Assembly: GCA_040904565.1 (NCBI GenBank)
Contig: JBBDTI010000014.1
Coordinates: 1-45,079 of the forward strand
Length of the DNA: 45,079 bases
Reading direction: 5' to 3'
Origin: Rhodothermales bacterium
Lineage (GTDB): Bacteria; Bacteroidota; Rhodothermia; Rhodothermales; VXPQ01
Shown: piece after piece, positions 9,482 through 43,445 of the stretch
Layout of the letters: each line of letters begins with the position of its first letter
Numbering within the stretch: position 1 is the first letter of the stretch
Made by a program: the position numbers and the translations under genes
Notes under the pieces: model-generated
What the model saw: only the letters and a program-made list of their open reading frames with translations
What the model was told of the DNA's origin: nothing
Database searches by the model: none

Positions 9482-9492
9482 CGCGCTGTAGC

Positions 9493-9639
9493 ATGATATT
9501 ACCATCCGGCTTGCCGTCCTTCGCATACCTCGGCTGGGGCCTCTTGGGTAGTGCACGTACATCGAAGATCGCCACGGCCACGCTCATCCTCCGCCAAGTC
9601 TTCGGCCTCGTTCTGGGAGGCCTCCTAGACCGGAGCTAA
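9493..9639 (+). pseudogene. 48-aa remnant paralogous to the C-terminus of 8645-9106
   Basis: My translation MILPSGLPSFAYLGWGLLGSARTSKIATATLILRQVFGLVLGGLLDRS vs FLGWGLFGSAVTLKIAGATLLLHLVYGAVLGALIDRK. Confidence 0.75.
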
Positions 9640-9673
9640 TCGCGATTGTGCCATACGAAAGAGGTCAAATACC

Positions 9674-10108
9674 ATGGAAACAACGAGGATTGTCACCGAA
9701 CCCATTGACGCGCATGCATCCGTCGTTCATCGGATCGCAGCCGAGCATCACATCCCGCTCGACGATGCCGAACGTCGTGTCGAAGAGTTGATCAAGTTCC
9801 TCTACGTTGCGGCCGAATCCGATGCGCCCGTCGCCCCATCGAAGGCCGTTGACGCGGCGTGGCACGCCTTCATCCTGCATACGCGTAACTATGCGGGCTT
9901 TTGTGAGAAGGTGTTCGGAAGGTTCATCCATCACGAGCCGGCCGATGCCGGCGCAGACACGGATACCGCGTATCGGACGACTCTCGAACGCCTTGCAGCG
10001 CGCTTCGGCACGCCGGATCCGCGCTACTGGCCTCCCGCAGACGCAGCGGGCTGCGAGGAAGGTCAGTGCACCGATGAATGCACAGGCTCCTGTAAGGGGG
10101 ACGGATGA
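9674..10108 (+). CDS. GRDP-like (glycine-rich-domain-protein/TIGR04222-related) protein with Cys-rich tail
   Basis: PSKAVDAAWHAFILHTRNYAGFCEKVFGRFIHHEP family motif; tail GCEEGQCTDECTGSCKGDG; GAGG RBS. Confidence 0.72.
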   Translation: METTRIVTEPIDAHASVVHRIAAEHHIPLDDAERRVEELIKFLYVAAESDAPVAPSKAVDAAWHAFILHTRNYAGFCEKVFGRFIHHEPADAGADTDTAYRTTLERLAARFGTPDPRYWPPADAAGCEEGQCTDECTGSCKGDG

Positions 10109-24238: not shown

Positions 24239-25087
24239 CTAGCCAATCAGCTTTAGTAAGCGTCGGACGCTGCCCACATATTCCGCGACGTATTCGTCAT
24301 TTACCGTTTGAAATAAGAAACGCGAAGCGTCTCGCGGACCCATTGCCTCCTCACTCGAGAAGTCGTTACGGAGGATCTCGATAGCCAGCTTTGTAGCGGG
24401 ATGATCTTCGATAATCTTGAAACGGGCAGCGACATCCTCTGTAGATTGGCCATAGTATCGCAGAACGTACCCCATATCGTACGCATCTTTGCGTGCTTTT
24501 CGATTACTAAATGCGATAGCCTTTAGTACGACAAACGCAGCTGGACCACATACCTGTATCTCCCTCGATGCAGCATCACCTTCCAGAGTTCGACCGATAA
24601 TCTCGACCACATTGACATCCTCGAAAGCAAGACGTGCACCAAAAGCCCGAATAGCTCCAAGGTCATCAGTCAGTGAGTGAATGCGTCCCCATCCGTGATC
24701 CTCCGTATCGCTCTCGTCAATGAGGAAGTCGAGCGTGACTGCCTTTTCTGGTTCTCGGTACCTCCATCGCTGCTTCGTTTCATTCCCCTTTTCATTCGTA
24801 TCCGGCAAAAAGTCTTGAGCCCTGAGTCGTTCAGCAAGTAGCTGGTATCGCTGTTGTGAAATCATTGAGAGTGACAGAACAAGATCGACGTCAACCGATC
24901 CGACGTGCGATTCCTTGCTTCCGTCAACTTCTTGAGCAATTAGAAAGACCGGAACAAGTCCGCCGACGAGCACGACATCCCTGGCAAAGTCTCCCAGGAA
25001 TGTGGCGGCGTGCAGGAGCGTATTCTTACTCCTCTCCAATTGCTCCGAAGTGTAGTCGGATGCGTATGTCAGTGTATCGTCAGTCAT
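24239..25087 (-). CDS. Nucleotidyltransferase, AbiEii-like type IV toxin
   Basis: VLVGGL, HVGSVDVDL, LDFL, FVVLKAIAFSNR..RKDAYD. Confidence 0.75.
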   Translation of the reverse strand: MTDDTLTYASDYTSEQLERSKNTLLHAATFLGDFARDVVLVGGLVPVFLIAQEVDGSKESHVGSVDVDLVLSLSMISQQRYQLLAERLRAQDFLPDTNEKGNETKQRWRYREPEKAVTLDFLIDESDTEDHGWGRIHSLTDDLGAIRAFGARLAFEDVNVVEIIGRTLEGDAASREIQVCGPAAFVVLKAIAFSNRKARKDAYDMGYVLRYYGQSTEDVAARFKIIEDHPATKLAIEILRNDFSSEEAMGPRDASRFLFQTVNDEYVAEYVGSVRRLLKLIG

Positions 25088-26165
25088 TCCGCAAGTGGTC
25101 GACTGGACCCCACCGAATACAATCCTCCCTAAGGGCTCGCTCGAACTCGTCAGCGCGTTCGCCTTCGTGCATTAGATCGACATAGACCTGCACTGGCGCA
25201 GCACACGTGATTCCTTCCACATTTCGTTGACCTTCGAATACGCCGACGTCATCTGCGAATAGTATGGTGACATTTGGGGCATTCGACTCTCGCCGAAAGC
25301 CCATCTCCTCCAATACGCCTTCTCCTACTTGCCGCGACATGAAGACGGTTGAAGAGCGGAATCCTGCTGACTTCGTGTACGCCCAGGCAGCACAAAGACC
25401 CGTTGCGGCATAGGGGACATTGGCATGCTCTACAGCATCAACAAACCGTCGGAGGACGTCCTCTCCCGACCGACCCGAGACATGGCCCTTCAATTGCTCA
25501 TGTCTGTAGGCATTACCGTCGGCCCAGGCATCCAGAAGAAGGTCATAATCCCGCGGGTAGACTTCTCCATCTGGCGTGCGTGCAAGTAAGTCTTCTTCCT
25601 CAAGCCGGCGTACCAGTCTACTCACATGCCCTTCGTCAACGTTTGTGGCCTCGGCCAAATCTCGCTGCCTGAAAGCCTTTCCTGGGTGCAGGAGCAGGTA
25701 TCTCGTCAGCCGGCTGGATTTTGGCGCAAAGAGATTCTTCGGGCGACCACGACGTTTGAATTTGTTAGGCCGGCCACGAACTGAGATAAACATGCGTGGT
25801 TCGGACTCATGACGAACGGAAGCGTTGCCGGATAGATCTATCCAGTTGACTCCCATATCGATCATCTTCTCGGCTTTCGAATCGCTCATATAAGGAACCA
25901 CGAGTACTGGTTCGATATGAGCCGCGCCGTCCTGGAGTGGAGAGCCATGGGCGTCCTCCGTACAGAAATCAGGTATGCCTGCATACGAGGCATCTGACTT
26001 CAGGATTACACCTAATGCTACGTCACCAGTCGTGACGATGAAATCAAAATCTTCGGGAGCGGAGCCGAGAGTCCGGAAGTTCAGTCCAGTCCACTCACGG
26101 AGCAAATTAGGAAGCTCCCTCTTGGCTTGAAGCTCTAATCCTATGCTGGAGAGGGATTTCAACAA
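25080..26165 (-). CDS. AbiEi-like type IV antitoxin with central wHTH
   Basis: WIDLSGNA, QRDLAEATNVDEGHVSRLVRRLEEE HTH, YAATG, PNVTI, APVQVYVDL...ERADE; overlaps the toxin start. TTG start uncertain. Confidence 0.78.
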   Translation of the reverse strand: MLKSLSSIGLELQAKRELPNLLREWTGLNFRTLGSAPEDFDFIVTTGDVALGVILKSDASYAGIPDFCTEDAHGSPLQDGAAHIEPVLVVPYMSDSKAEKMIDMGVNWIDLSGNASVRHESEPRMFISVRGRPNKFKRRGRPKNLFAPKSSRLTRYLLLHPGKAFRQRDLAEATNVDEGHVSRLVRRLEEEDLLARTPDGEVYPRDYDLLLDAWADGNAYRHEQLKGHVSGRSGEDVLRRFVDAVEHANVPYAATGLCAAWAYTKSAGFRSSTVFMSRQVGEGVLEEMGFRRESNAPNVTILFADDVGVFEGQRNVEGITCAAPVQVYVDLMHEGERADEFERALREDCIRWGPVDHLRND

Positions 26166-26614: not shown

Positions 26615-27418
26615 TCACCCAACCAGATTGAGCACGCTCTGCCGGGTCGCGTTGGAGTGGGCGATCGCGGCGAGTCCCGCCTTGGCTACGATCTGCAGCC
26701 GGATGAGCTCGGTCGACTCCTTGGCGAAGTCGGCGTCGGCGATGCGGCTGTTGGCGCCTGCAAGGCTGATGAGGCTGTCGTTGACGTAGTCGCGGGCGCC
26801 ACGAAGCTGTGATGCGGAGCCGTTAAAGCGGCTGCGTGCGTCGGCCATCGTGTCCCTTGCGTCGGAAATCGACTCGAGGGCGGCACGGGCGCTGTCGCCG
26901 TCCGCCAGGCTGGCGCCGTCGAGTCCGAGCGCCTCGGCGCTCACGCTCTCGCCGTCGACGACGATCGTCTCACCGCCCTCGTCGACCAGCACCTCGTAGC
27001 CGGCGTCATCTCCGAAGACAGCCTCGCCGTTGAAGCTCGTCCCGCCGTGCAGCTCATCGAGTTCCGCAAGCAGGCCGCTCATCTCGCTGTCGAGCATGGC
27101 TCGCTGTTCGTCCGAGACGGTGTCTGAGCCGGCCTGGACGGCCAGCTCGGTGGCCCGTCCCAGGATGTCGTCCACCGTGTCCATGGCGCCGTTGGCCACG
27201 TCGATTCGCGACAGTCCCATCTCCGCGTTGTCGAGTCCCTGCGTCAGCCCGCGAATGCGGCTCTGGAGCTTGCTTGAGATGCTGAAACCCGCACTGTCGT
27301 CTTCGGCGCGGTTGATCTGCAGGCCCGTTGCGAGGCGCTGTCCGGTCACGGCCAGGTCTCGGAACGTCTTGTGCAGGGCCACGAGCGGTTTGTTGGTGCC
27401 ATCGAGCGGTCGGGTCAT
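26615..27418 (-). CDS. fliC: Minimal flagellin
   Basis: RLATGLQINRAEDDSAG, ELAVQAGSDT, TSFNG, SRIADADFAKE, SVLNLVG. Confidence 0.92.
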   Translation of the reverse strand: MTRPLDGTNKPLVALHKTFRDLAVTGQRLATGLQINRAEDDSAGFSISSKLQSRIRGLTQGLDNAEMGLSRIDVANGAMDTVDDILGRATELAVQAGSDTVSDEQRAMLDSEMSGLLAELDELHGGTSFNGEAVFGDDAGYEVLVDEGGETIVVDGESVSAEALGLDGASLADGDSARAALESISDARDTMADARSRFNGSASQLRGARDYVNDSLISLAGANSRIADADFAKESTELIRLQIVAKAGLAAIAHSNATRQSVLNLVG

Positions 27419-30009: not shown

Positions 30010-31851
30010 CTATTGTTTCCCCCAGAAGATAAACGTCCCCCGGTCGCCCGACGTGACGACGTCCACCGCGCCGTCGCCATTCAGATCCACAACTTCGAAC
30101 TGCGACCCGACGCCCGAGCGATTGTGAATGAGATTCGGCTCGAAGGCGAGTCCGCCCGGAACCGGCGCATTCTTCACCGTGCGAAACCAGTAGACCACAG
30201 CCGGGCTGTAGGGATCGGGATCGGTCGAGCTGTCGAGGTGCGCCCAGTAGCGCTTGCCCGTGACGAGGTCCGGGGTTCCATCCCCGTCCACATCCGCAAT
30301 CTCCACGCCGGAGTGAAGCTGCGAGAACGCCACGAAGTCGGGATTCTCATGCGTCAGGGTTCCCATAATGAGGTGCGGCTCGAAGGTGATACCACCCGAC
30401 GCGTCGCGCTGCTGCTCGAACCACGCGAGGCCCCAGCCGTGCGCGTTGAGGCTCGTCGCCACGTCATTCAATCCATCCCCATTCAGATCCACGACGGCCA
30501 TGTTCGCGCCGCCGCTCCCATCGATGCCACCCGCTTCCGTAAAGGGAAAGGCGTGGTAGGTCCACGTACCGCTCTTCGCACCCGTGGCAGGCTGTTCCAA
30601 CCATCCATCCGGGAAGAGGACGTCGGCGCGGCCGTCTCCGTTCACGTCGCCGGCCCCGAGCCCGTGAATCGTATTCCCGAAGCCCATGGGCTCGGATACC
30701 TGATAGACCGTCCACAGCGAGGTCGGGTCGTTCGGGTCGGGCTCGGCGTAGGCTAATATGCCCTCGTCGGCCGTATGAACGACTTCCGGCTCACCGTCAC
30801 CGTCCATATCGTGCAGAATCGTCGTTTCCGAGATAATGTCCGGTATCGCCTCATGGCGGGTCCACCGGCGGCTCTCGCCCCGCGGGTTGACGTAGAGCAC
30901 CATGGCCCGCGACTCGGTCGCCAGCACATCCGGCCATCCGTCGCCCGTAAAGTCGTGGGCGTGCGTCACCATATCCTCCGTGTACTCGGTGCTCGGATTG
31001 TACGTGACACCGAGGTACACCTCTTTTCGCGTCGTGAAGTCCGGTCCCAGATAGATGTAGGGGCCCGCGACGACATCCAGCACCCCATCCTGATTGAAGT
31101 CGGCGATCCCCGTATCCCACGCGTAGTAGAACTCGTCGAGCTGCTGCAGGGTGAAGTCGTCGGAGGTCTGCTCCGGGGCGATGTGACGCATGTTGTAATC
31201 GGCTACGCCAACGTCGACGAACTCGACGGCGTCCGACCCTCCGACGTAAAGTGCAACCGGACCGTAGCCACTGGATCCGTCGCCCGTAACACCGCTCGGA
31301 CCGCCCCAGCCGTTGAGATGGGCCCTCACGACGTTGGCGTCGAGTACGATCGTAAGCTCCTGCCACCCGTCTCCGTCAAACGAAACCAACTCGGACGGCT
31401 CGGAAGCATCCGCGGCAATCCGCACTTGCGATCCCACGCGAAGAAGACGTTCCCGGCTGTCGATGCTTCCATCGTCTCCCAGCGAAACACGAAAGAATCC
31501 TGCCTCATCCGAGAGATCGAGAAAGACGCCCTCGTATCCGTCGTCGGTCTCCTCCATCCGAAGCAGCACACCCGTATTGCATGCCTCTGCACAGCGAAAA
31601 CGTAGATACATCTGTACGTCCTGATACGAGCGATCGAGCACCAACCAGCCGGACGCTCCGCCCGGCGTACCGGTGATGACGCCGCTGTCGGCCTCCCATG
31701 CTGCGTCACCGAGCATGTGCCAGTCGGAAAGGCTCGACCCCTGGAACGTCCAGTCTGCCTCAAAGTGCGGCGTCGGCTGCGCCACCGCCGCGAGCGGCAG
31801 AAACAGGGCGAGAAGTGCGATAATCCAGTTCGACTGCTTTGGGAGCATCAT
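30010..31851 (-). CDS. Secreted DUF1080-like + FG-GAP/VCBS-repeat protein
   Basis: Start reset to MMLPKQ (signal AVA/Q); FQGSSLSDW, CNTGVLLR; multiple DxNxDGxxD repeats. Confidence 0.8.
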   Translation of the reverse strand: MMLPKQSNWIIALLALFLPLAAVAQPTPHFEADWTFQGSSLSDWHMLGDAAWEADSGVITGTPGGASGWLVLDRSYQDVQMYLRFRCAEACNTGVLLRMEETDDGYEGVFLDLSDEAGFFRVSLGDDGSIDSRERLLRVGSQVRIAADASEPSELVSFDGDGWQELTIVLDANVVRAHLNGWGGPSGVTGDGSSGYGPVALYVGGSDAVEFVDVGVADYNMRHIAPEQTSDDFTLQQLDEFYYAWDTGIADFNQDGVLDVVAGPYIYLGPDFTTRKEVYLGVTYNPSTEYTEDMVTHAHDFTGDGWPDVLATESRAMVLYVNPRGESRRWTRHEAIPDIISETTILHDMDGDGEPEVVHTADEGILAYAEPDPNDPTSLWTVYQVSEPMGFGNTIHGLGAGDVNGDGRADVLFPDGWLEQPATGAKSGTWTYHAFPFTEAGGIDGSGGANMAVVDLNGDGLNDVATSLNAHGWGLAWFEQQRDASGGITFEPHLIMGTLTHENPDFVAFSQLHSGVEIADVDGDGTPDLVTGKRYWAHLDSSTDPDPYSPAVVYWFRTVKNAPVPGGLAFEPNLIHNRSGVGSQFEVVDLNGDGAVDVVTSGDRGTFIFWGKQ

Positions 31852-32036
31852 GGTCGTCTCGGGTACGTCGTTCGCTAAAAAGGGATAGGCGTCTCGTGGG
31901 GACCATATTACGCGATGCGCACCGCCCCTGCGGTGTCGCATCTTTAGGGGATCCTGTACCATCTTTCGATGACGCACGCCGACGTTCGCTGGACGATGTA
32001 ATTCCGGACGCACGCCTCGTGCGTGAAACGCCCGGG

Positions 32037-33527
32037 TTATATCTCCCAGCCCTTTCTGTACGTCCGCCCGACAAACTGATTGGCCTCTTCGAGGTTCGTG
32101 ATGCGCATGTTCTCGCCGTCCCACAGCAGCTTCCGGCGGGCGTAGAATTCCACGTCGCCATCGCTGTCTTCCTTGCGCAGCATGTAGCTGCGGATGGCGA
32201 GGTTGCCCATGAGGACCGTCTCCGTCATCGGACCGGCATAGTCGAACGAGGACGTAAGGGCCTTGTGCTCGGGGCTTCCAAAGCCGGCCTTGCAGGCATC
32301 CACCCAACGGCGCTGGTGGCCGTATTCGGGCTCGTCGTTCGGCTCCGTCTCGGGGCCGAATTCCTGCGTCCCGTCGTTTAGATACAGCTTCGGCATCAGC
32401 GGCGAGCTGTCGTTGATATTCGTGGAGATGACACCCTTCTCCCCGATCATCAGCACGCCGTTCGCGCTGTTACGGCCGCCGATGTCGTGGTCGGCCGGGA
32501 TGGCGTCCGGATGAGGAGGCCGGATGCCGCCGTCCATCCAAGTCATCTCGATGGGCGCCCGGCTCTTGTCGGTCGCGTCGAAGTGCAGGGTGATGAGCGA
32601 CGAAGCCGGAGCTCCCTCCGGATGATAGTCGGGCGTCCACATGCCCGTATAGATCGTCCCCACGCTGCATTCGGCGTCCGTGGGATAGTGCAGATCGAGC
32701 GTCCGGAAGGGAATGTCGATGAGGTGACAGCCCACGTCGCCCAGTGCTCCCGTGCCGAAGTCCCACCAGCCGCGCCAGCTGAAGGGATGCAGGCCGGGCC
32801 GATAGGGTCGTTCGGAGGCCGGCCCCAACCACAGGTCCCAGTCGAGTGCCCCCGGTCTCTGGCTCGGATCGGGTTCCGAGGGCGCGACGCCCTGCGGCCA
32901 GACCGGACGGTTCGTCCACACCTCAACCTTCGAAATCTGTCCGATGACGCCGTCATCCACCCATCTCTGTACCATCCCCAGCAGCGGATTCGACGCGCCC
33001 TGGTTCCCCATCTGCGTGACGACCTGATGCTCCCGCGCCATCTCCGTCAGCAGACGTGCCTCGCGGATGTTGTGGGTGATGGGCTTCTGGACGTAGACGT
33101 GCACGCCCCGCTCCATGGCGAGCTTCGCTGCCGGCGCGTGATTGTGATCGGGCGTCGAAATCGTGACGGCGTCGATGTCCGTCATCTCATCCAGCATGAC
33201 GCGGTAGTCGGCGTAACGCATCGCGTCCGGAAATCGCTCGACGGAATTGGAGGCGGATCCCGAGAAATCCACGTCACACAGCGCCGCCACACGCTCGCGC
33301 CCGTCCACCGATGCATTACGGATGTCGCTCGCACCTTTACCGCCCGCACCGATCGCCGCCAGGTTCAGCTGATCGCTAGGCGCCGTGTACCCGGGTCCAC
33401 CCAGCACGTGCCGGGGAAAGATGAGAAAGGAGCTGCCTACGGCGGCCTTCTTCAGGAAGGACCGGCGGGAGGTGCGTGCGTTCTTCGATTCAGACTTCTT
33501 CGATTCAGATTTCTTAGACCGGTGCAT
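32037..33527 (-). CDS. Tat-exported Gfo/Idh/MocA oxidoreductase
   Basis: SRRSFLK, IGAGGKG, STPDHNH, YVQKP, QMGNQ, WDLWLGPA, WRGWWDFGTGALGD. Confidence 0.92.
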   Translation of the reverse strand: MHRSKKSESKKSESKNARTSRRSFLKKAAVGSSFLIFPRHVLGGPGYTAPSDQLNLAAIGAGGKGASDIRNASVDGRERVAALCDVDFSGSASNSVERFPDAMRYADYRVMLDEMTDIDAVTISTPDHNHAPAAKLAMERGVHVYVQKPITHNIREARLLTEMAREHQVVTQMGNQGASNPLLGMVQRWVDDGVIGQISKVEVWTNRPVWPQGVAPSEPDPSQRPGALDWDLWLGPASERPYRPGLHPFSWRGWWDFGTGALGDVGCHLIDIPFRTLDLHYPTDAECSVGTIYTGMWTPDYHPEGAPASSLITLHFDATDKSRAPIEMTWMDGGIRPPHPDAIPADHDIGGRNSANGVLMIGEKGVISTNINDSSPLMPKLYLNDGTQEFGPETEPNDEPEYGHQRRWVDACKAGFGSPEHKALTSSFDYAGPMTETVLMGNLAIRSYMLRKEDSDGDVEFYARRKLLWDGENMRITNLEEANQFVGRTYRKGWEI

Positions 33528-33712
33528 CGGTACGGACGTGAATTGCTGAGAGGGCTCCAGCGTGCAGGTTAACGCATTTCAAGCTCGCCCACAAGCCGTC
33601 CGATTGCGTAAGGTTCTTTACGGCCACTCGACGAGCACACGCTCGTAACGCATGAGCACGAGTTACAACCTACATATCCATCGCGATGAGTAAACTAAAT
33701 TCATGATGCCTT

Positions 33713-35047
33713 TTGTCCCGACGGCTACTCCTCTTCTTTTTCACGCTGACTATCCCGTTCGCGCTCGGCCCTCCAGAGGCGTCCGGACAGTCTGACCGCG
33801 CCAGAGGCGGCGAGAGCCGAACGGATATGCTTCGCGAGGCGCGTGTGGCCCGAGCAGACAGCGTGCGTCCTCCGCAACGTTCCACGCTCCACCGAGTGCT
33901 CCTGGCGACTGAGAACCGCACGCTGCTTCAGCGGATCCCGTCGCTGTCCATCTACGGCTTTCGACCCGGCTTCGGCGGCATTCAGGGTGGTGCCGGAACG
34001 ACTGCAGGCGCCGTATACGACCCGGCATACGTCCCGCAAGGATGGAACCTCCTCGTGGACGGTCTCGCGAGCACGAAGCGCTACTGGCAGGCGCGCCTCC
34101 TCCTCGGATACGATGCGGGGCGGACCGTCTTCTACGGCTTCGCGCGGTATCGACACCTGCCCGAAGAAGGCTTCTGGGGAGTCGGACCGACAACGTCTCT
34201 CGACAACGAATCGGATTATCGGCTGGATGACGCGCTCGTCGGCGGCCTGCTAGGCTACCAGCTGAGTGACAGAGCAAACATCGGTGTGCAGGTAGGGTAC
34301 CGAAATAACTGGCCCGGGCCCGGGCGCGACCCCGAGCATCCAAACGTCGACGATCGATACCAGGCCGGCGAACTCCCTGGTCTTTCGTCGACGATCCGCC
34401 ACCTCGTACTGGGCGGATTCGCCGAATGGGACGGCCGAAATCCTTCGCGTCCCTTCGGTTCCGGCCGCCGATATGCGCTGGTCGACACACGCCTCGATGG
34501 ACTCTCGTTCGACGCCAAACATGGTTTTTACGCCCTTGCGGAAGTCTCCCACCAGATCCACATCGACGCGGAAGACCGGGCTGACGAGCATTTTTCGTAC
34601 GTGCTGGGACGCGTCGTCCTTCAAGAATATGCAGCCTTCCGCCGAGGCATGCAGCGCATTGCATTCCAGCAGGTCGCGGCCTATTCGAAGGTCACAAACG
34701 ACCGGTTCGGAGCCGTCCCTTTCTACGACCTGCCCTCGCTCGGTGGATCGAACTCACTGCGTGGATTCGACAACCTGCGATTCCGTGACCGCGGCTCCAT
34801 GATGATCAATGCCGAATATCGCTGGCAGATCTGGCATTTCACGGATCTGGTGGCCTTTGTGGACGCCGGCCAGGTGTTTCGAGATGTCCGCGACATCGAC
34901 CTTGACGACACGGCTGTTTCATACGGCGGGGGCATTCGCTTCAAGCTCGGTACCCTGCATCAGGGCCATCAGTCGTTCGCCCGACTGGAAGCAGCCACGG
35001 GTAAAGATGGGGCGCGCATTATCTTCAAGTACGGAAGCTTTTTCTAA
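33713..35047 (+). CDS. Omp85 (BamA/TamA-family) outer membrane beta-barrel without obvious POTRA domains
   Basis: Signal peptide; LGGSNSLRGFDNLRFRD, NAEYRW, FVDAGQV, SYGGGIRF, terminal Phe. Confidence 0.85.
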   Translation: MSRRLLLFFFTLTIPFALGPPEASGQSDRARGGESRTDMLREARVARADSVRPPQRSTLHRVLLATENRTLLQRIPSLSIYGFRPGFGGIQGGAGTTAGAVYDPAYVPQGWNLLVDGLASTKRYWQARLLLGYDAGRTVFYGFARYRHLPEEGFWGVGPTTSLDNESDYRLDDALVGGLLGYQLSDRANIGVQVGYRNNWPGPGRDPEHPNVDDRYQAGELPGLSSTIRHLVLGGFAEWDGRNPSRPFGSGRRYALVDTRLDGLSFDAKHGFYALAEVSHQIHIDAEDRADEHFSYVLGRVVLQEYAAFRRGMQRIAFQQVAAYSKVTNDRFGAVPFYDLPSLGGSNSLRGFDNLRFRDRGSMMINAEYRWQIWHFTDLVAFVDAGQVFRDVRDIDLDDTAVSYGGGIRFKLGTLHQGHQSFARLEAATGKDGARIIFKYGSFF

Positions 35048-35051
35048 TCCT

Positions 35052-36710
35052 ATGGCCCTGCACGACTGGATCCACGTCGGCAGCCTAACTGCGCTGCTGT
35101 TCAGCCTGACGCTCGCGCCCGCCGCGGGCGCCCAGGTGTTTTTTGTTGACGATCCTATCCAGAAGGACCCCGACCGCGTTCCGCTCGACCGCGAGCCGGA
35201 GGAATACCCTGTCTCGGATTTATTCAACGCACTCGACGTCACGATCCGCACGCCCGGTCATGCCGACGGCCCGGCTCCAAACGTCAACACGCTCGGTGAC
35301 GTGCCGGCTTCCAGCTGGTACGAGCCCCGCCACTACGCTCGACCGATGACGCCGGCCGAGCTGGCTCGGGGCCCGAACACCACCGGGGGACCGACCGGAG
35401 AAATGTGGACCGTCGTCAGCATCAAGGAGGAGGGGGTCACACCGGGCTTGACAATCCTGGACGGCCGGGGGCTTCGCTACATGCTTAAATTCGATGGAAA
35501 AAAATATCCGGCCATGGCGTCGGCGGCCGAAGCGATCACGACGAAAATATTCTATGCCCTCGGATATCACGTGCCGGAGAATTATATCACCCATTTCAGG
35601 CCGGAGCAGCTCGTTCCGGACACCGCCGAAGGGATTCGGCAGTCGGACATCGCCGAGCTTATCGGAGAACTCACGACGTACGGCGAAGGGCGACATCGCG
35701 CGCTGGCCAGTCTCTTCCTCAACGGCGTGCCGATCGGACCGTTCACCTACTACGGAAGGCGGTCGGATGACCCTAACGACCTCTATCCCCACGAAGCGCG
35801 TCGCGAGCTCCGCGGGATGCGCCTGGCGGCCGCGTGGACGGACCACTTCGACTCGCGCGCCCAAAACTCACTCGACATGATCGTCGAGCGGGAGGACGGC
35901 ACAGGCCGGTACGTGCGGCATCACCTGATCGACTTCGGCACGACGCTCGGCGGGGGAGCGCTCGGACCAAAGCGATTGTGGTATGGTGCGGAATATGCCT
36001 TCGAACTCGATGCCATCCTCGCGCGGACCGTAACCCTGGGCATTGCCCGCTCTTCGTGGGCGTCTCACAGCTTTCCCGACATCCCGCACGTCGGATTTTT
36101 CGATGCCGAACAGTTCGATCCGGTAGGCTGGAAGCCGGGATTTCCGAACCCCGCCTTTCGGCGTATGGACGCGCGTGATGGCTTCTGGATGGCCAAGCAG
36201 ATCGCACGATTTGACGATGCCGGCATAGAGGCCATCGTCCGCTCTGCTGAGTATCCCGACGAAGCAGCGACCCGTCACGTGACCGAAACGCTCGCCGAAC
36301 GACGGGATCAGATCGCGGATGCGTATCTGACGCTGGGCGGCGGCATCGACGCCTTTGAAACCAAAAAAACGCCTGGCGGGACCGTCCTGACCTTTCGCGA
36401 GCTGCTGCCCGAAAAAACCGGCAACTCGCGCACCGTAGCGTGGCATCGCTTCGACAATGCGTTCGATGCGGAAGGCGGCCCCGCCGTCGGACCGTCGTTC
36501 AAAGAGGAAGAAATCGAAGACAATGCTGTCGCAGTGCCGGACCACTCCCACGAATTTATGGTCGCGGTCATCAAGACGCCCGGATATGGGGCCACGCGCG
36601 TTTTCTTGCGGAAGCGAAATCCGACGCCGGCTTCCGGGGAGGCCACCTTCGAGGTGGTCGGCATTCAACGCCGTTCGAGTGACGAGCACTTCAAGCCGGG
36701 TTGGGGCTAA
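35052..36710 (+). CDS. Secreted protein with predicted atypical kinase fold (HipA/PI3-4K/CotH-like)
   Basis: Start reset to ATG 35052; signal peptide AAGA/Q; KEEGVTPG, YMLKFD, AEAI, GYHVP, HFDSRAQN, LIDFG in canonical order. Confidence 0.7.
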   Translation: MALHDWIHVGSLTALLFSLTLAPAAGAQVFFVDDPIQKDPDRVPLDREPEEYPVSDLFNALDVTIRTPGHADGPAPNVNTLGDVPASSWYEPRHYARPMTPAELARGPNTTGGPTGEMWTVVSIKEEGVTPGLTILDGRGLRYMLKFDGKKYPAMASAAEAITTKIFYALGYHVPENYITHFRPEQLVPDTAEGIRQSDIAELIGELTTYGEGRHRALASLFLNGVPIGPFTYYGRRSDDPNDLYPHEARRELRGMRLAAAWTDHFDSRAQNSLDMIVEREDGTGRYVRHHLIDFGTTLGGGALGPKRLWYGAEYAFELDAILARTVTLGIARSSWASHSFPDIPHVGFFDAEQFDPVGWKPGFPNPAFRRMDARDGFWMAKQIARFDDAGIEAIVRSAEYPDEAATRHVTETLAERRDQIADAYLTLGGGIDAFETKKTPGGTVLTFRELLPEKTGNSRTVAWHRFDNAFDAEGGPAVGPSFKEEEIEDNAVAVPDHSHEFMVAVIKTPGYGATRVFLRKRNPTPASGEATFEVVGIQRRSSDEHFKPGWG

Positions 36711-36716
36711 TCCTTT

Positions 36717-38036
36717 ATGCGTACTCATCCTGTGCACACCCATTGGTTCGCCACCAGCCTCGTCGTCGCCGCACTCGTGCTGCTGGCAGGCTGCGCGTCG
36801 AAAGGACTGCTCGAACGCGACGTCTATGACGACGCCATCCATCTGCCTGAATCCGTTCCCGATTCCCTCGACGCACACGACTTCCTCATCATCGGCGACA
36901 CGCAGTCGTCCTGGCGAGCGGAAGTCAAGTTTTACCGGCGCAAGAACTGGGTTACGTGGAAGCAGCTTCTCGTCCCGTTCTATCAGGTCTACCTGCTTGG
37001 CAACGGCATCTTGGGGGGCGTCAACTGGTATCGGCAGAAGCCCGATTACGGCGGGCGCGCGCGCCTGGCCGTCCGACAGGCGCTGCAGGAGGAGATCGAT
37101 GCGTCGCCGCCCCCGTCGTTCCTGCTTCACCTCGGAGATATCGGCGCGCACGACGGCCGGTATCCCGATCACTGGGACATCTTCCTGGACGAGTACGGGC
37201 GCGGCTCACCATCCATCCTGGAGCAGCTGCCCATGGCACCCGCCATCGGAAACCACGAGTACGCATCCGATTCCACCTACGGGTGGCCGAACTTTCGACA
37301 CGTCTTCGACGCGCCTCGGTTCTACGTGATCGATACGCCTGAGATGGCCATTTTCGTTCTCGATTCGAACCTCCTGCTGGATCAACACCAATTTCTTGAC
37401 GATGCGGTGCAGGATCGCCTGTTTCGAACCTGGTTCGTCGACGATTCGGTCGCGGACGGATCGCCACAGGCGGCCTGGCTGCAGCGGGAGCTGGAAGCGC
37501 GGAAGGATCGATCGATAAAGATCGTGGCGATGCACCATCCGATCGTTTCTTTCGGCTGGCACAACCGTGACTGGTACAGAGGCTCTCTCGGTACGGATCT
37601 GTTGGAGAAGAGAGACGCTCTGCTCCGGCTGTTTCGAGATCAGGGCGTGCAGGCCGTCCTCTCCGGCCACGAACATCTCTACGAACATTCCACGATCCGC
37701 CTTGCCGACGAGATGGATTCGACCGACGCCTTCGTGCTCCACCAGATCGTGTCCAGCGGCGCCGGGGCGGCCGTCCGTCCGCCGACGGCTCCCGAAGACG
37801 TCCGGCAGCGGACGGAGAAATACCGTAGCGAAGGCCTTTCCGTAACGCTGGAGACGCAGGTATCAACATATCACTACACGCGCGCCCGAATTCGACGTGA
37901 TTCCCTGATCCTGGAGACCCGGGCCGTGGATGTGCACGATCCGTCCGAAACGACGCCTATCGATCGCGTCGGAATCGGTCCAATTCCATCCCACATCTCC
38001 CCGACCGCGCCCGACGAAGATCAACCCGAGCGATGA
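36717..38036 (+). CDS. Lipoprotein calcineurin-like metallophosphoesterase
   Basis: LAGC lipobox; GDTQ, HLGD, IGNHE, MHHP, SGHEHLYE, SSGAG. Confidence 0.9.
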   Translation: MRTHPVHTHWFATSLVVAALVLLAGCASKGLLERDVYDDAIHLPESVPDSLDAHDFLIIGDTQSSWRAEVKFYRRKNWVTWKQLLVPFYQVYLLGNGILGGVNWYRQKPDYGGRARLAVRQALQEEIDASPPPSFLLHLGDIGAHDGRYPDHWDIFLDEYGRGSPSILEQLPMAPAIGNHEYASDSTYGWPNFRHVFDAPRFYVIDTPEMAIFVLDSNLLLDQHQFLDDAVQDRLFRTWFVDDSVADGSPQAAWLQRELEARKDRSIKIVAMHHPIVSFGWHNRDWYRGSLGTDLLEKRDALLRLFRDQGVQAVLSGHEHLYEHSTIRLADEMDSTDAFVLHQIVSSGAGAAVRPPTAPEDVRQRTEKYRSEGLSVTLETQVSTYHYTRARIRRDSLILETRAVDVHDPSETTPIDRVGIGPIPSHISPTAPDEDQPER

Positions 38037-39397
38037 AGGCACTCGAAACCGCCTATAAGAAATTCTTCAATATCCGAAGGGATGAGTGGCCTAAGGCACT
38101 CGGACTGGCGCTATTATTCTTCCTCGTGATTGCCACGTTCTGGGTGCTCAAGCCTATCAAGCGAGGCCTGATCATCGCCTATTTCGGACAGGATGCCCTG
38201 CAGATTCTCGGGTACGCGCTGAACGGCGCTCAGGCCGAGCAAATCGGTAAGGTCATCAACATGATCGTCGCTTACGGTGTCGTGATTGTCTTCACGCTCC
38301 TCGCCCGCCGCCTGGATAGAGCGCTTCTGATCGCGGTGCTCGCAGGCGGCTTCGGAGTCCTCTTTATCGTTTTTAGTTTTCAGATGGCCGAGCCCACGGC
38401 CCTCGTCGTCTGGACATTCTACGTCATGGGCGACATCTTCACTACGGTCATGGTCGTCAGCTTCTGGGCCTTCGCGAACGACATGAACGAGGGATCTGAA
38501 GCCGAACGGCTCTACGGCGTGGTCGGACTCGGAGGCGTCGTGGGTGGATTTGCCGGGGCGACGCTCGTATCCACGCTGGTCGAGCCGCTTGGACGCGCTG
38601 CCCTGCTGTACGTGTGTACCGGCCTCGTCGCAGCGCTGGTCGTCGTCGCCTACGCGGTCGACATCTACGTCCGAGGCGATGCAGATAGACGCCCGGCATC
38701 CTCTTCGGGCACCGCCGAGGCACCCGTCGAAAAAACGAGCGCCGTGTGGGAGGGAGCTCGCGTCGTTCTGAAATCAAGGTATCTGCTCGCGATCATGGCG
38801 CTGGTCGGGCTCTACGAGATCGTGTCGAACGTAGCGGACTTTCAGCTGGCTACGTTCGTGGAGCTGCACGTGCCGGGTGACACGGAGAAAGACGCGTTCT
38901 TTGGATTTGTCGGACAGCTTACGGGCATCGTGTCGATCGGCGTGCAGCTGCTGGTAACGACGTACGTTCTTCAGAAATATGGCACCGGAGTAGCCCTATT
39001 TTTCCTTCCGATAGCCATTCTCGTCGGCTCGGCCGGCTTTATGATCGTACCGACGCTTGTACTTATCACCTTCGTCAGCGTGAGCGACAACGGCCTCAAT
39101 TATTCCATCAATCAGTCCGCGCGTGAAACCCTTTATACACCGCTCTCACAGGACGGCAAATACAAGGCCAAAGCCTTTATCGACATGTTCGTGCAGCGCG
39201 CGGCAAAGGTACTGGCCGTCGGCGTCAATCTCGGATTGACCGTCCTGGTCAGCACGCAGGTCAGGTGGTTGTCGCTGCTCTCCGTCGTCCTCATCTCCGC
39301 GTGGCTCTGGATCATCTATTATCTGGGACGAGAGTTCAGCAAGAAGAAAGAGAGCTCCCTAATTGATCAGTTGGCGGTATCCGGTAGTGCGCCGTGA
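38033..39397 (+). CDS. Npt1/Npt2 (NTT/TLC, ATP/ADP translocase) family transporter
   Basis: About 12 TMs; LKPIKR, FWAFAND, ARETLYTPL...KYKAKAFID...RAAK. Confidence 0.85.
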   Translation: MKALETAYKKFFNIRRDEWPKALGLALLFFLVIATFWVLKPIKRGLIIAYFGQDALQILGYALNGAQAEQIGKVINMIVAYGVVIVFTLLARRLDRALLIAVLAGGFGVLFIVFSFQMAEPTALVVWTFYVMGDIFTTVMVVSFWAFANDMNEGSEAERLYGVVGLGGVVGGFAGATLVSTLVEPLGRAALLYVCTGLVAALVVVAYAVDIYVRGDADRRPASSSGTAEAPVEKTSAVWEGARVVLKSRYLLAIMALVGLYEIVSNVADFQLATFVELHVPGDTEKDAFFGFVGQLTGIVSIGVQLLVTTYVLQKYGTGVALFFLPIAILVGSAGFMIVPTLVLITFVSVSDNGLNYSINQSARETLYTPLSQDGKYKAKAFIDMFVQRAAKVLAVGVNLGLTVLVSTQVRWLSLLSVVLISAWLWIIYYLGREFSKKKESSLIDQLAVSGSAP

Positions 39398-42300
39398 CAC
39401 GATTTCTGGAGAAGATTGCGGACATACGAGCGGGCGAGAGACGCCTGACCCTCGTCATGGGCTCGTATTACTTCGTCCTTCTCATCAGCTATTATCTCCT
39501 GAAGCCCGCCCGGGACAGCCTCTTTCTTACGGAGCTGGGGGCGGAGCAGCTTCCGCTCGCCTTCATTTTGATCGCCCTGGTAGCCCATCCCGTCAGTCAG
39601 GTTCACGGCTGGGCCGCCCGAAAAATGGGAATCGGCCGGCTCATCGGAGCCGCCTCGGCCGTGCTCGCCGCCATTCTCGTCGGCCTTTACCTCCTCTTCA
39701 GCCAGTCGAATCCGACCGATTCTCCGGCCGCTTACTATACCCTCTACGTCTTCGTCAGCTTATGGGGTGCGCTGACGATCAGTCAGTTTTGGCTCCTCGC
39801 TAATCGCGTGTACATCGCCTCACGCGCGCGAAAGATGTTCGTTCTCCTAAACGTCGGAGCGATGCTGGGAGCGTTCGCCGGAGGGGAGCTCGCTAACGCA
39901 GTCGTGACGTACACCAGCCTCTCCACGGCCCACTTACTGCTGGCGGGCGCCGCCGTCCTCGCCGTGAGCACCGCCTGGGTACCTGCCGCGCTGAAAAACG
40001 AACAGGGCGGCCACGAAGTCCAAACGGACGAGGTACAGGACGAATCCGATACATCGGATGCCGACCCCGCGTCTCGTCAGAATCTCTCCTCTGCGTTCGC
40101 GACGATCCGAGGCAACCCCTTTCTCTTGCTCATCGTCGCGATTCTGGGCCTGGAAATGTTCGCCTCCACATTTGTCGACTTCCAGTTCAAGACGATCGCG
40201 ACGGACGCCTTGGCCGACGAACGAGAGCTCACCGGCTTCCTCGCGACATTTTACGGCCGGGTCAGTCTGATCGCGCTGGCCTTTCAAATTTTCGTTCTGC
40301 CGCAGATGCTGCGGCGCTACGGCCCGCGGAGCGCGATGCTGATTATGCCCGCGGGGCTGATCGCAGGCTCGGCCCTGATCCTAGCCGCCCCCATCCTGCT
40401 GACCGCGACGATCCTCCGCGGTGCCGATCAGATTTTCGAACACTCGGCTGACAAGGTCGGGCGGGAACTACTATTCCTGCCCCTCCCGATGTCGACAAAG
40501 AAAAAGGTAAAGGTATTCATCGACGTAGCCATTGACCGCGGCTTTCGCGGATTGGCCGGCGCTACCCTTCTACTGTTGACCGGCGTCCTGGCGTTCGATA
40601 TGCGCATGTTAAGTATCGTCACGCTCGTCGTCCTGGTCGGCTGGATTGTCCTCGTGCTAAAAGTACACACCCTGTACGCGGAAGCGTTCGCCGAGGCCGT
40701 CGACGAGCGAAGGTTGGAGATGAACACGACGTGGACGCGGACGGTCTCCCTCGATCAGGCGCTGAAAGCCGCCGAACATGCACTCGAAGATGCGGATGAT
40801 ACCCGCTTCCTGTATGCTCTCGACGCCATGGCCCGGTATGACGACGACCGCATCGTCCAGCTAATCCGACCGACGCTACACCACCCGTCAGAGGTTGTGC
40901 GGCGCTGCGTGCTGAAGGTGCTTCGGATGCAGTCTACCACCTCGGCTTCGGCCGACCTTGTGCTCAAGAGCGAGGAATATGCCGGACACGCAGAAAGCGT
41001 CGACCACCTCCTGCACGACGTGGACGCCGGACTGCGCCAGCTTCGCGATCATTCCCACGTCGAGCGGGACTATCCCGCCGAGAACGACACGCGTTGCGTA
41101 CTCAAGGTTTACGCGGCTCGCGACGAACTGCTTTTTGGCGCGGCGGATCTCCGCGAGGTCGCGGGAAACAAGGACACCCGCCTCCGCCTCACGCTTGCTC
41201 TCTTGCTGGGCGCGCCGGCCACTCCTCGTTCGCAGCAAGACACGGTCACGGTAACATTCTGCTCCCCCTCGTCGAAGAAAGGTACCGCACCGCATGACCC
41301 CGTGGAAGACGGTGATACGGACATGCACGACGCCGTTCCAACCGTCGTGCAAGAGACGCTCATGGAACTGAGCGAGGATTCCGATTCGGTCGTGCGGAGA
41401 GCCGCCATCCGATCGATGGGCCGCCTGAAGACGCCCGAATTTGTGGACCGACTCATCGACTCGCTCGGCGACGACCAGGTGCTGGCGGCCGCGTGGACCG
41501 CGCTGACGCGGTACGGTACGGACATTCTCGGTCCGATCGACGAGGCTTTTGAGCACCCGAGTACAAGTGAGGTCGTGCGCCGCCGGATTCCAAGAGTCGT
41601 CGGCGAGATTCCGACACAGGAATCCGCCGACCTGCTCATGTCGCGGCTCCACTGCGAAGACCCCGTCCTCCGCTTCAACGTGTCGACGGCACTTTTGCGG
41701 CTTCGAAGCCAGAAGCCGTCCGTCCAGCTCGATACCGATATGGTGGAGGAGGCGCTCGATACGGAAATTGATACCTTTTATCGGCTCGCGCTGACCCAGC
41801 ACGCGATATGGAAGCACAGCGGGGATACGTCCGAGCATCTTCGGCCGCTCGCAAACTTGCTGGACCAGCATCGCGATCGCAGTTCCGAACGCATCTTCCA
41901 GCTTCTCGGGCTTCGGTATTGCGAGCACCAATTTCACGAAGCCTACGATGCGTTTTCCGGAGACCGTGACGAACTGCGTGGCCTGGCGGTAGAGTGGGTG
42001 GATAACGTACTGGACGCCGATCTTCGATTGCTGCTGCGGCCGATTCTGGACCCGCCCTCGCTGCCCGTACTCGCGGCGCGGGCGAAGAAGGTATTGGGAC
42101 CCCACCACACGGCAGAGCTCGATGCATCGCTTCAATTCCCCTTCGTGCAGGGCGTGCAGCTGCTCCTGCAGAGTCCCATTCCGCGCCTGCAGCGCCAGGC
42201 GATCGAAGTGGCCAGGCGCCGTCTCTCGGACGCAGACGATCTTCCCCAATCCGACCGCGAACGTACAGAGCTGGCTAAAATCGTCCTTCAGCGTGTCGAC

Positions 42301-42432
42301 ATCATGCAGGAGGATGCCGACGAAGCGGTCCGGCACGCCGCACGGCGCGCCGTCCGCGCCGCGCGCGGGCTGCTGGAAAGAAGAAACGTTCCCGAATCGT
42401 CAGTCTCGGGACGCCCCAGCACGAGCGCATAA
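39394..42432 (+). CDS. Npt1/Npt2 family transporter fused to HEAT repeats
   Basis: LKPARDSLFL, QFWLLAN, RELLFLPL...KKKVKVFID; C-terminal HEAT repeats (DSDSVVRRAAIRSMG, EDPVLRFNVSTAL). Confidence 0.85.
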   Translation: MTRFLEKIADIRAGERRLTLVMGSYYFVLLISYYLLKPARDSLFLTELGAEQLPLAFILIALVAHPVSQVHGWAARKMGIGRLIGAASAVLAAILVGLYLLFSQSNPTDSPAAYYTLYVFVSLWGALTISQFWLLANRVYIASRARKMFVLLNVGAMLGAFAGGELANAVVTYTSLSTAHLLLAGAAVLAVSTAWVPAALKNEQGGHEVQTDEVQDESDTSDADPASRQNLSSAFATIRGNPFLLLIVAILGLEMFASTFVDFQFKTIATDALADERELTGFLATFYGRVSLIALAFQIFVLPQMLRRYGPRSAMLIMPAGLIAGSALILAAPILLTATILRGADQIFEHSADKVGRELLFLPLPMSTKKKVKVFIDVAIDRGFRGLAGATLLLLTGVLAFDMRMLSIVTLVVLVGWIVLVLKVHTLYAEAFAEAVDERRLEMNTTWTRTVSLDQALKAAEHALEDADDTRFLYALDAMARYDDDRIVQLIRPTLHHPSEVVRRCVLKVLRMQSTTSASADLVLKSEEYAGHAESVDHLLHDVDAGLRQLRDHSHVERDYPAENDTRCVLKVYAARDELLFGAADLREVAGNKDTRLRLTLALLLGAPATPRSQQDTVTVTFCSPSSKKGTAPHDPVEDGDTDMHDAVPTVVQETLMELSEDSDSVVRRAAIRSMGRLKTPEFVDRLIDSLGDDQVLAAAWTALTRYGTDILGPIDEAFEHPSTSEVVRRRIPRVVGEIPTQESADLLMSRLHCEDPVLRFNVSTALLRLRSQKPSVQLDTDMVEEALDTEIDTFYRLALTQHAIWKHSGDTSEHLRPLANLLDQHRDRSSERIFQLLGLRYCEHQFHEAYDAFSGDRDELRGLAVEWVDNVLDADLRLLLRPILDPPSLPVLAARAKKVLGPHHTAELDASLQFPFVQGVQLLLQSPIPRLQRQAIEVARRRLSDADDLPQSDRERTELAKIVLQRVDIMQEDADEAVRHAARRAVRAARGLLERRNVPESSVSGRPSTSA

Positions 42433-42488
42433 CGCATCCTGCTTCAGATCTGGGCATCGGAATTCGACGGTGCAGGATTACCATCACG

Positions 42489-43445
42489 TCATCCCCCCAA
42501 ACGTGACCTCAAGGACTCCAACCCAGGCGCCGGCATCGCCTCCTCCCGAGCGATGTCCAGCCACGTATCCAGCATCATGCGCGTTTGTCCGCCGATCTTC
42601 GAAAAGTGATACTGAAGGTAGGCTTCCATGGGAATGGGTACTACGAGCGGTGCAAAACGTAGCGCGGCGGCGAGGATCATTCGATAGGGCAGCCGTGCGG
42701 CGAGACCAGCGCTTCGGCCCATGTACGAGGCGGTGGCCCGGATCGCCTCTACCGCGGCCTGCTGCACGACTGACAGATGGTCCCTTCCCCGCAGCCGCTG
42801 CAGTGACCATTCGGAATGCTCCAAAGCCGCCACCGTACAGATCAGGACGGCGGCGCCGCGCGCGGCGGTCCAGGCCAGATCGGAGCGCGTTCTGGCGGGC
42901 AGCCCACCCGCTCGCAGCCACGCTGCCGCACGGTCACCTTCGGGCGACTCCTCCAGCAGGGCCGCGGCAAATGGCGGTAAGAAGTAGCCGAATCCCTCCA
43001 GCGTACTGTCCGTCCCGGGCAGCGGGCTCTGGAACGACAGGAAGCCGATCACGCCCTGGACGATCGGTCCGCGGTTGGCTCCGTTGTACATCTTCTCAAG
43101 CCGATCCCGATCGCGGACGTCGGGCGTCCAGGTAACCACCGGCGTGCCCGGTGCCAGCTCGCCGAGCCGCTCCGCCAGCCACTCCGACTCCAGCGCCGTC
43201 GACGGCAGGCAAAGCCAGACCTGGTCCCACGCACCCTCGGCGCTCGTCACACACGGCACGTGCTGCGTCACCGTGCGCCTGCCGCCCAGCACCCTATACT
43301 CGTGCAATGGACGCGGCATGGCCGCGTTGGAAGACTCCCGGTCACGAACCAGAAACGTCACGCTGCAGCCCGCCCGATCGAGGTATTCGGCATATATGGC
43401 ACCTACCGCGCCGCTGCCCGCTATGAGGACCCGCGTATCAGTCAT
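42489..43445 (-). CDS. Ketopantoate reductase (PanE/ApbA) N-terminal-domain family oxidoreductase
   Basis: VLIAGSGAVGAIY..L..AG..VTFLVR Rossmann motif; divergent C-terminus. Confidence 0.75.
   Translation of the reverse strand: MTDTRVLIAGSGAVGAIYAEYLDRAGCSVTFLVRDRESSNAAMPRPLHEYRVLGGRRTVTQHVPCVTSAEGAWDQVWLCLPSTALESEWLAERLGELAPGTPVVTWTPDVRDRDRLEKMYNGANRGPIVQGVIGFLSFQSPLPGTDSTLEGFGYFLPPFAAALLEESPEGDRAAAWLRAGGLPARTRSDLAWTAARGAAVLICTVAALEHSEWSLQRLRGRDHLSVVQQAAVEAIRATASYMGRSAGLAARLPYRMILAAALRFAPLVVPIPMEAYLQYHFSKIGGQTRMMLDTWLDIAREEAMPAPGLESLRSRLGG

Follow-up and report, generated by a model that had tools for sequence, protein, structure and literature searches.

An exported kinase-fold protein predicted to dock on a POTRA-less Omp85 barrel in a Rhodothermales bacterium

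The stretch of DNA analysed here, hereafter the window, consists of 45,079 nucleotides from a Rhodothermales bacterium (contig JBBDTI010000014.1 of assembly GCA_040904565.1, forward strand). It carries a gene for a hypothetical protein, P0001, which a sequence-only reading had proposed to be a secreted atypical kinase. Our analysis indicates that P0001 very probably has a kinase fold, is exported and makes up a unit with a POTRA-less Omp85-family barrel, whose gene lies immediately upstream. With moderate confidence we also infer, as regards catalysis, donor and substrate, that it actively transfers phosphate to a component of the cell envelope. The most informative part of the results, going beyond the motifs recognised earlier, is the conserved gene partner, the Omp85 barrel, together with the other conserved partners.

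Translation from the ATG at 35052, situated 4 bases past the stop of the upstream Omp85-like gene, contained all five motifs that had been claimed, in the claimed order: KEEGVTPG (residues 125–132), YMLKFD (143–148), AEAI (159–162), HFDSRAQN (265–272) and LIDFG (292–296). The residues of interest are K146 (codon 35487–35489), E160 in AEAI, D267 and N272 in HFDSRAQN, and D294 in LIDFG. This start agrees with that of P0002, a 552-residue homologue from a Rhodothermales metagenome-assembled genome (98% identity, 100% coverage, collinear). A longer open reading frame starting at 34809 was rejected as the gene start; it overlaps the upstream gene.

An AlphaFold2 model of the protein, built on an alignment of 36 sequences, had a mean predicted local distance difference test (pLDDT) score of 92.3 and a predicted template modelling score (pTM) of 0.92. 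Exhaustive comparison of this model with 48,161 chains of known structure returned only atypical kinases among the top 15 matches (Z 13.9–8.0), with 210–256 residues aligned at a root-mean-square deviation (rmsd) of 3.8–5.0. The best were Fam20C (Z 13.9, 254 residues aligned, rmsd 4.1) and CtkA (Z 13.6, 225 residues, rmsd 3.9), followed by Hydra Fam20 (13.3), Golgi casein kinase (13.0), PI4KIIalpha (12.5) and CotH (12.2). Next came an unnamed 'kinase with AMP-PNP' (11.8), a Fam20C/A complex (11.7), HipT and actin-fragmin kinase (both 10.8), HipA (10.7 and 10.2), MavQ (10.3) and PI4KIIIbeta (8.0). Foldseek gave six matches at E≤0.001, all of them to CtkA, the best with E 9.1e-5. Structure search thus places the protein in the bilobal fold of the protein-kinase-like superfamily, as seen in the Fam20, CtkA, PI4KII, CotH and HipA clades that had been named for it, and a non-kinase fold was not seen.

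The residues stand where such a fold would have them. In the model K146 ends the strand 142–147 and E160 lies within the helix 155–169, a placement which, with their conservation, fits the beta-3 lysine and alpha-C glutamate of kinases. D267 and N272 belong to a loop joining the helix 251–262 to the strand 273–279, and D294 comes just past the strand 286–292. Structural matches delimit the kinase core to approximately residues 105–430. The C-terminal part gave fibronectin-III (Fn3) matches over residues 427–523, with Z of 6.4–7.1, a range that the comparison tool rates as common.

Conservation was measured on a profile of 123 representatives whose mutual identity is at most about 50%. K146 was kept in 110 of them, E or D at position 160 in 105, D267 in 112, N272 in 109 and D294 in 121; the full K-[ED]-D-N-D pattern was present in 94 of the 123, and in 76 of 82 genomic copies. 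The earlier reading had made its case depend on the conservation of these five positions, and it passes this trial, each being kept in 85–98% of the relatives. Such family-wide conservation indicates that the motif set did not arise by chance. The same reading fared less well for its 'Gly loop': KEEGVTPG is present at residues 125–132, but it is not a canonical GxGxxG, and only G128 (117/123) and P131 (95/123) are well kept.

At the level of sequence, the only detectable link was to HipA-like kinases. P0001 itself had no match to HipA_2 (PF20613) at E≤10. Among 35 relatives scanned, five had HipA_2 matches below threshold (15.8–20.5 bits, for a cut-off of 27) and one a HipA_C match (16.8 bits, for a cut-off of 30.5), all of them over the N-lobe. 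When the 123-sequence profile was aligned by hhalign to a profile of 12 HipA_2 genes taken from genomes of the same phylum, a probability of 95.1% and an E-value of 3.4e-8 were obtained over 233 columns. In P0001 the alignment spans residues 125–436, and it brings K146, E160, D267, N272 and D294 onto the K, E, D, N and D that are conserved in HipA_2, so that the D-x4-N motif and the DFG-like aspartate have counterparts there. The comparison shows remote homology to HipA_2 and not membership of that family. The family would thus be a distant relative of HipA-like kinases that, to judge from the model, is structurally closest to the Fam20, CtkA, PI4KII and CotH group.

The claim that this is an unnamed family held up. 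Searched at E as high as 10, P0001 matched no Pfam and no NCBIfam family, which includes Fam20C (PF06702), CotH (PF08757) and PI3_PI4_kinase (PF00454); none of these three was found either among the 36 members of the alignment (P0001 and the 35 relatives). Against the sequences of the PDB, neither the single sequence nor the 123-sequence profile matched a solved kinase, and the only rows returned were at chance level (E 1.3 and E 0.68). In a language-model look-up, the labelled clusters that came nearest were those of the same four kinase families, with scores of 0.79–0.81 that the tool rates as leads only. The family is large: a word-indexed search, in which 8,000 candidates were scored, yielded at least 954 proteins at E≤0.001, all named 'hypothetical' in their source, and among representatives clustered at 50% identity there were 2,576 clusters at E≤0.001 and 1,777 at E≤1e-10. 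It is seemingly commonest in Acidobacteriota. Only two of 201 genomes searched in the home phylum carry it, the source genome included. The other carrier (G103:C3:274977-285632) has two kinase-like copies within 10 kb, one of them with a TAA inside the match.

The N-terminus of P0001, MALHDWIHVGSLTALLFSLTLAPAAGA followed by Q, combines a hydrophobic core with an AxA-like cleavage site (AGA before Q) and contains no K or R. Export of the relatives was judged by a hydropathy heuristic, which looks for a hydrophobic core ahead of the conserved column of F30. Such a core was found in 119 of the 121 relatives with enough N-terminal sequence, and a lipobox-like motif in 36 of the 121. Export is therefore consistent across the family, in line with the signal peptide proposed for P0001; the word 'secreted' does less well, since the protein is better read as periplasmic. 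From the complex model described below, it is best described as docked beneath an Omp85-type barrel rather than released.

The gene directly upstream encodes an Omp85-family protein (PF01103, 37.7 bits for a cut-off of 24). Its model has a pLDDT of 85.5 and 16 strands, and its structural matches were Sam50 (Z 26.0), TamA (25.9), BamA (25.0) and FhaC (21.7), the FhaC and CdiB entries ranging from 20.7 to 21.7. The hallmarks of Omp85 proteins are all present, namely 16 strands, the RG[FY] motif of loop L6 and the FxDxG motif of strand 13. Among 38 barrel sequences R36, R350 (in LRGF), F382, D384 and G386 were invariant and R44 nearly so. The Pfam scan of the barrel gave no POTRA family match, and only two helices precede the strands in the model. 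Proteins of this 'noNterm' Omp85 subfamily have been described as uncharacterised, with undetermined function (PMC4104836, PMC11358297), and the word 'kinase' occurs in neither of these two papers.

The association of the two genes was examined at 80 related loci drawn from collections that include one genome for each species (Rhodothermales, Salinibacter/Salinivenus, Calditrichaceae and many Acidobacteriota). An Omp85-like gene was found near the kinase-like gene at 76 of them, and at 71 it is directly upstream on the same strand. The remaining five Omp85-like neighbours are within 2 kb, four on the same strand and one on the opposite strand. Four loci have no Omp85-like gene, one of which (L046) includes just 7 bases of upstream sequence. 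At an Acidobacteriota locus (L059:6741-9605), one open frame runs across both the Omp85-like and the kinase-like matches, which may be a fusion or a coincidence of frames. Fusion to Omp85 was also considered for two long relatives, P0228 (969 residues) and P0241 (1,158 residues), and rejected: there is no Omp85 domain and no Pfam match in their extensions. Together with P0245 (969 residues) they have C-terminal extensions of 430–650 residues with conserved stretches in common, likewise without Pfam match and distinct from Omp85. Relatives were gathered within a length window, and fused forms may exist outside it.

A complex of the mature barrel with the mature kinase-like protein was predicted in three runs, with three controls, from user-made alignments. 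The interaction prediction score from aligned errors (ipSAE) was 0.80, 0.80 and 0.81, versus 0.00 in all three controls; the pLDDT of the partners was at least 86, and at least 86% of the contacts were common to the runs. Of 157 solved complexes 116 reach the mark used for ipSAE, as do 2 of 215 mismatched pairs; this calibration is only rough for user-made alignments. As a prediction, this score supports binding of the kinase-like protein to the barrel.

On the kinase side, the predicted interface comprises residues 31–58, 237–242 and 244. On the barrel side, contacts involve residues 33–68, 310–314, 369–381 and 414, that is, the N-terminal helices and the turns 310–313, 375–376 and 413–419, which counting of strand parity from the C-terminus places on the periplasmic side. 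The residue pairs of lowest error join residue 44 of the barrel to residues 242 and 241 of the kinase-like protein. The positions that make up the interface are invariant in both proteins. Of the 82 genomic copies of the kinase-like gene, 80 keep F30, D33 and P35, the other two having gaps, and all 82 keep R237, D239, D240 and D243. D240, D243, H247, R251 and R254 are invariant both in the 123 representatives and in the 82 copies. No kinase motif explains these residues, the most conserved of the family, and the modelled interface would account for them.

The kinase-like gene is the second in a run of five genes on the + strand, separated successively by gaps of 4 and 6 bases and then joined by two overlaps of 4 bases (Table 1). 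Promoter and terminator scanning of 33400–42900 gave results at the level of chance (3 promoter-like signals for 2.4 expected, 7 terminator-like signals for 7.1 expected). None of the five proteins had a match in PADLOC, and the reading of the operon as a defence system was therefore set aside.

Table 1. Positions in the window of the five genes of the operon and of the parts of the kinase-like gene
Feature	Position	Strand	Remarks
POTRA-less ('noNterm') Omp85-family barrel	33713..35047	+	Signal peptide, helices 36–50 and 58–68, 16 strands
Kinase-like gene (hypothetical protein P0001)	35052..36710	+	552 codons then TAA
Predicted Sec signal peptide	35052..35132	+	Residues 1–27, cleavage between AGA and Q; read from sequence
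Conserved N-terminal segment of mature protein	35139..35225	+	F30-x-x-D33-D34-P35...D39; predicted contact with Omp85 helix
Bilobal kinase-like core	35379..36329	+	About residues 110–426; K146, E160, D267-x4-N272, D294-F-G
Family signature loop	35760..35813	+	R237-x-D-D-x-N-D-x-x-P-H-E-x-R-R-E-L-R254; predicted to touch R44 of Omp85 helix
C-terminal fibronectin-III-like beta-sandwich	36330..36674	+	Residues 427–541; strands 432–541 in model
Lipoprotein metallophosphoesterase	36717..38036	+	Lipobox LLAGC; PF00149, 49 bits (cut-off 21.5)
NTT/TLC-type nucleoside tri-/diphosphate (NTP/NDP) exchange transporter	38033..39397	+	PF03219, 95.8 bits (cut-off 21); TIGR00769, E 1.7e-25; 4-base overlap with upstream stop
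NTT-HEAT fusion transporter	39394..42432	+	PF03219, 53.4 bits (cut-off 21); HEAT_2, 62.6 bits

The last two genes encode nucleotide exchangers, and all three TLC matches of the source genome (4.02 Mb, 94.9% complete) lie within them. The host of this NTT and NTT-HEAT tandem is a free-living sediment bacterium; the four read sets on record are entered as DNA, an entry marked as a guess, and come from sediment metagenomes of one study. Major et al. (2017) reported NTT and NTT-HEAT(-cNBD) proteins in free-living bacteria, with unknown function (PMC5381601, as far as its text was available). In our set, TLC genes were found near the kinase-like gene at 28 of the 80 loci by tblastn, at 25 of 81 by profile hidden Markov models on complete open reading frames, and at 16 of the 47 loci whose sequence extends 5 kb or more to either side. 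Other genes recurring at the 81 loci encode metallophosphoesterases (19), cyclic nucleotide (cNMP)-binding proteins (8) and PAP2 phosphatases (7). One relative, P0248 (782 residues), is a fusion of the kinase-like domain (about residues 72–440) to a membrane PAP2 domain (644–754; PF01569, E 4.3e-13), and lacks the FxxDDP motif.

Divergent to the operon, on the − strand at 30010–33527, is a pair for exported sugar oxidation: a GFO/IDH/MocA oxidoreductase with a twin-arginine-like leader (RRSFLKKAAVG), then a large FG-GAP/3-keto-disaccharide-hydrolase protein. Elsewhere in the window, a patch at 24239–26165 (− strand) has a lower GC content, 0.53 versus 0.59–0.66 for the rest. In it, an AbiEi-like/MarR-type regulator gene overlaps a gene with a sub-threshold nucleotidyltransferase match. 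The two look like a putative toxin-antitoxin pair of type IV within a small island, which a flagellin gene (26615–27418) adjoins.

The source genome has a second kinase-like gene, on contig C13 (177441–179033 of genome G000, equivalent to 8388–10049 of locus L081). The protein is 42% identical to P0001 and has the substitutions K146T, D267R, N272T and D294N. It keeps the invariant docking motifs, and an Omp85-like gene of its own lies upstream (L081:7080-8381, 34% identity to that of the window). The gene of an MscS-type channel abuts this pair upstream, and downstream is an M23 peptidase gene on the opposite strand. In addition, three of the 82 genomic copies differ at one catalytic position: D267E was seen in two and D294E in one. 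That the source genome combines an intact copy with a degenerate one, each having a barrel of its own, recalls kinase/pseudokinase pairs and may point to regulation.

From these data the following mechanism is proposed. A kinase-fold enzyme would be exported by Sec to the periplasm, where the mature protein would dock on the periplasmic side of the POTRA-less Omp85 barrel that the upstream gene encodes. Its FxxDDP segment and R-x-DD-x-ND loop would grip the arginine-bearing N-terminal helix of the barrel and three periplasmic turns. Thus held at the outer membrane, it would carry out NTP-driven phosphorylation of an envelope substrate, with K146 and E160 acting in nucleotide binding, D267 and N272 forming the catalytic loop, and D294 binding metal. 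The substrate would most likely be a lipid or glycolipid phosphate or an outer-membrane protein, a guess made because PAP2 and metallophosphoesterase partners recur; the lipid or glycolipid phosphate may be favoured because of the PAP2 fusion and the lipid kinases among the structural neighbours.

In the source genome, the two NTT exchangers of the operon would most plausibly supply the periplasm with ATP and take up ADP in return, and the lipoprotein metallophosphoesterase would either remove the phosphate or clear the spent nucleotide. This can be extended to a periplasmic write/erase cycle, in which NTT transporters exchange nucleotides 'outward' and so fuel the kinase with exported ATP, the barrel-held kinase writes on an outer-membrane lipid, glycolipid or protein, and PAP2 phosphatases or metallophosphoesterases erase. 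We put this cycle, in which the direction of transport is itself deduced, forward as a doubtful proposal.

Several observations weigh against a kinase acting in this way. The periplasm is generally held to be free of ATP. No TLC gene is nearby at 52 of the 80 loci, and when five genomes were searched in which the kinase-like gene lacks a TLC neighbour, a TLC gene was present elsewhere in three and absent from two, which are recorded as single chromosomes, so that NTT-supplied ATP is not a general requirement. The glycine loop, as said, departs from the canonical form. HipA_2 was picked for the profile test after the weak hits had been seen, which makes this single planned pairwise test less independent. 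Residues of the signature loop and interface are more conserved than the catalytic ones, and 3 of the 82 genomic copies, among them the paralogue of the source genome, have clearly lost the catalytic set. Since the degenerate copies keep their Omp85 partner, the kinase fold has a non-catalytic role too, and on their account the docking role is conserved more strictly than catalysis. A TLC gene is near none of the three clearly degenerate copies, versus 28 of 76 intact ones, although these numbers are small.

These points could be taken further, P0001 being then a subunit without catalytic function, on the periplasmic side of a POTRA-less Omp85 machine, whose fold would serve as scaffold, plug or ligand sensor in place of the POTRA domains and whose motifs would be a relic or a regulatory nucleotide site. 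Such a subunit would have its invariant positions at the interface and not among the catalytic residues, as is observed, and degenerate copies would retain an Omp85 partner, as they do. The tightness of the barrel pairing (71/80), far above that of any ATP-supply or phosphatase gene, and the two of five genomes devoid of TLC genes also agree with it. We nonetheless consider it unlikely, because the presence of the full catalytic pattern in 94 of 123 representatives as diverged as these argues for selection on catalysis, and because the phosphatase neighbours and the PAP2 fusion indicate phosphate chemistry. An active enzyme might still not be an ATP phosphotransferase. The kinase fold does not by itself fix the chemistry: it is also that of SelO-type AMPylases and SidJ-type glutamylases, and P0001 could perform AMPylation or another nucleotidylation, or use a different extracytoplasmic donor. 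Genomes without TLC genes fit a donor other than exported ATP, and the nearby periplasmic metallophosphoesterases could process nucleotides. However, the residues align with those of phosphotransferases (HipA_2 and the kinases matched in structure), none of the top 15 structural matches is titled AMPylase or glutamylase, and NTP/NDP exchangers are the most frequent accessory gene, so that this alternative seems to us quite improbable.

It is also conceivable, if very improbable, that the kinase leaves by way of the barrel for the cell surface or the medium, to act on external targets, in a manner akin to two-partner secretion. The predicted interface corresponds to docking of a folded protein on periplasmic turns, and some 36 of 121 relatives look like lipoproteins, both of which weigh against this route. 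The two POTRA domains of a two-partner transporter are absent, helices 36–50 and 58–68 alone preceding the 16 strands, and in place of the beta-helix of a secreted partner there is a kinase fold with an Fn3-like domain. FhaC and CdiB do figure among the barrel matches, with the Z-scores given above, but BamA, TamA and Sam50 score higher than FhaC. What remains in favour of this route is the order of the genes, barrel then partner, as for TpsB/TpsA, and the top Foldseek match, CtkA, titled 'proinflammatory kinase' of H. pylori, a protein which is released from the cell.

The literature searched, which comprised few subscription journals, contained nothing on the kinase-like family, on an Omp85-kinase pair or on export of ATP to the periplasm. 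Fold and chemistry are of a known kind; the family, its predicted obligate docking on Omp85 and its link to nucleotide exchangers and phosphatases were found in no paper searched. A large family, of 2,576 clusters, is without name or assigned function, and the intact catalytic set of its kinase fold, in a compartment that textbooks describe as free of ATP, poses a sharp and testable question. As a working model, the gene set provides an anchor (the Omp85 barrel), a writer (the kinase), erasers (the phosphatases) and a fuel line (the NTP/NDP exchanger). The hypothesis bears on the role of NTT and NTT-HEAT proteins in free-living bacteria, as treated in the available text of PMC5381601, and on that of POTRA-less Omp85 proteins, as treated in the available text of PMC4104836 and PMC11358297. 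If the write/erase cycle were true, it would be the first function assigned to noNterm Omp85 barrels and to NTT transporters outside parasites, at odds with the rule that no ATP-dependent chemistry takes place in the periplasm.

Among known systems, Fam20C or Golgi casein kinase and the relatives of Fam20 show the best structural likeness to P0001 (Z 13.9, 13.3, 13.0 and 11.7 over 228–256 residues). Both Fam20 and the kinase-like protein work outside the cytosol, and both families include catalytically dead paralogues: Fam20A is such a paralogue of Fam20, and a Fam20C-Fam20A complex is among the matches. The kinase-like protein differs from Fam20 in having no sequence match to PF06702, with 9–11% identity in the structural alignments, and in its Omp85 envelope context. 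CtkA of Helicobacter pylori, CotH of Bacillus, PI4KIIalpha and MavQ of Legionella have the atypical kinase fold in common with it. CotH and CtkA act outside the cytoplasm; PI4KIIalpha and MavQ are, by the titles of their entries, lipid kinases, which fits the PAP2 link of the family. P0001 differs from CotH and PI4KIIalpha by having no match to PF08757 or PF00454, and we know of none of these four proteins docked to an outer-membrane barrel.

HipA-like kinases (PF20613 HipA_2 and PF07804 HipA_C) have their motifs in register with those of the family and resemble it in structure (HipT Z 10.8, HipA Z 10.7 and 10.2). HipA is a cytoplasmic toxin paired with a HipB antitoxin, whereas here a signal peptide and different neighbour genes were found. 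The kinase-like family is exported, has about 110 more N-terminal residues, an invariant acidic loop (237–254) and a C-terminal Fn3-like domain; its partner is an Omp85 barrel and not a HipB-type antitoxin, and its neighbours are that barrel, a metallophosphoesterase and NTT transporters.

The two transporters of the window have architectures as in PMC5381601, including cNMP-binding genes nearby (at 8 of 81 loci). The words 'export' and 'periplasm' are absent from that paper, whereas here the NTT genes are tied to the gene of an exported kinase-like protein. Finally, the partner barrel resembles 'noNterm' Omp85 proteins, with the RGF of L6 and the FxDxG of strand 13, the lid-lock motifs, and no POTRA domain. 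The clade to which the window's barrel belongs is set apart from the others by a conserved arginine-bearing N-terminal helix and by an obligate kinase-like neighbour.

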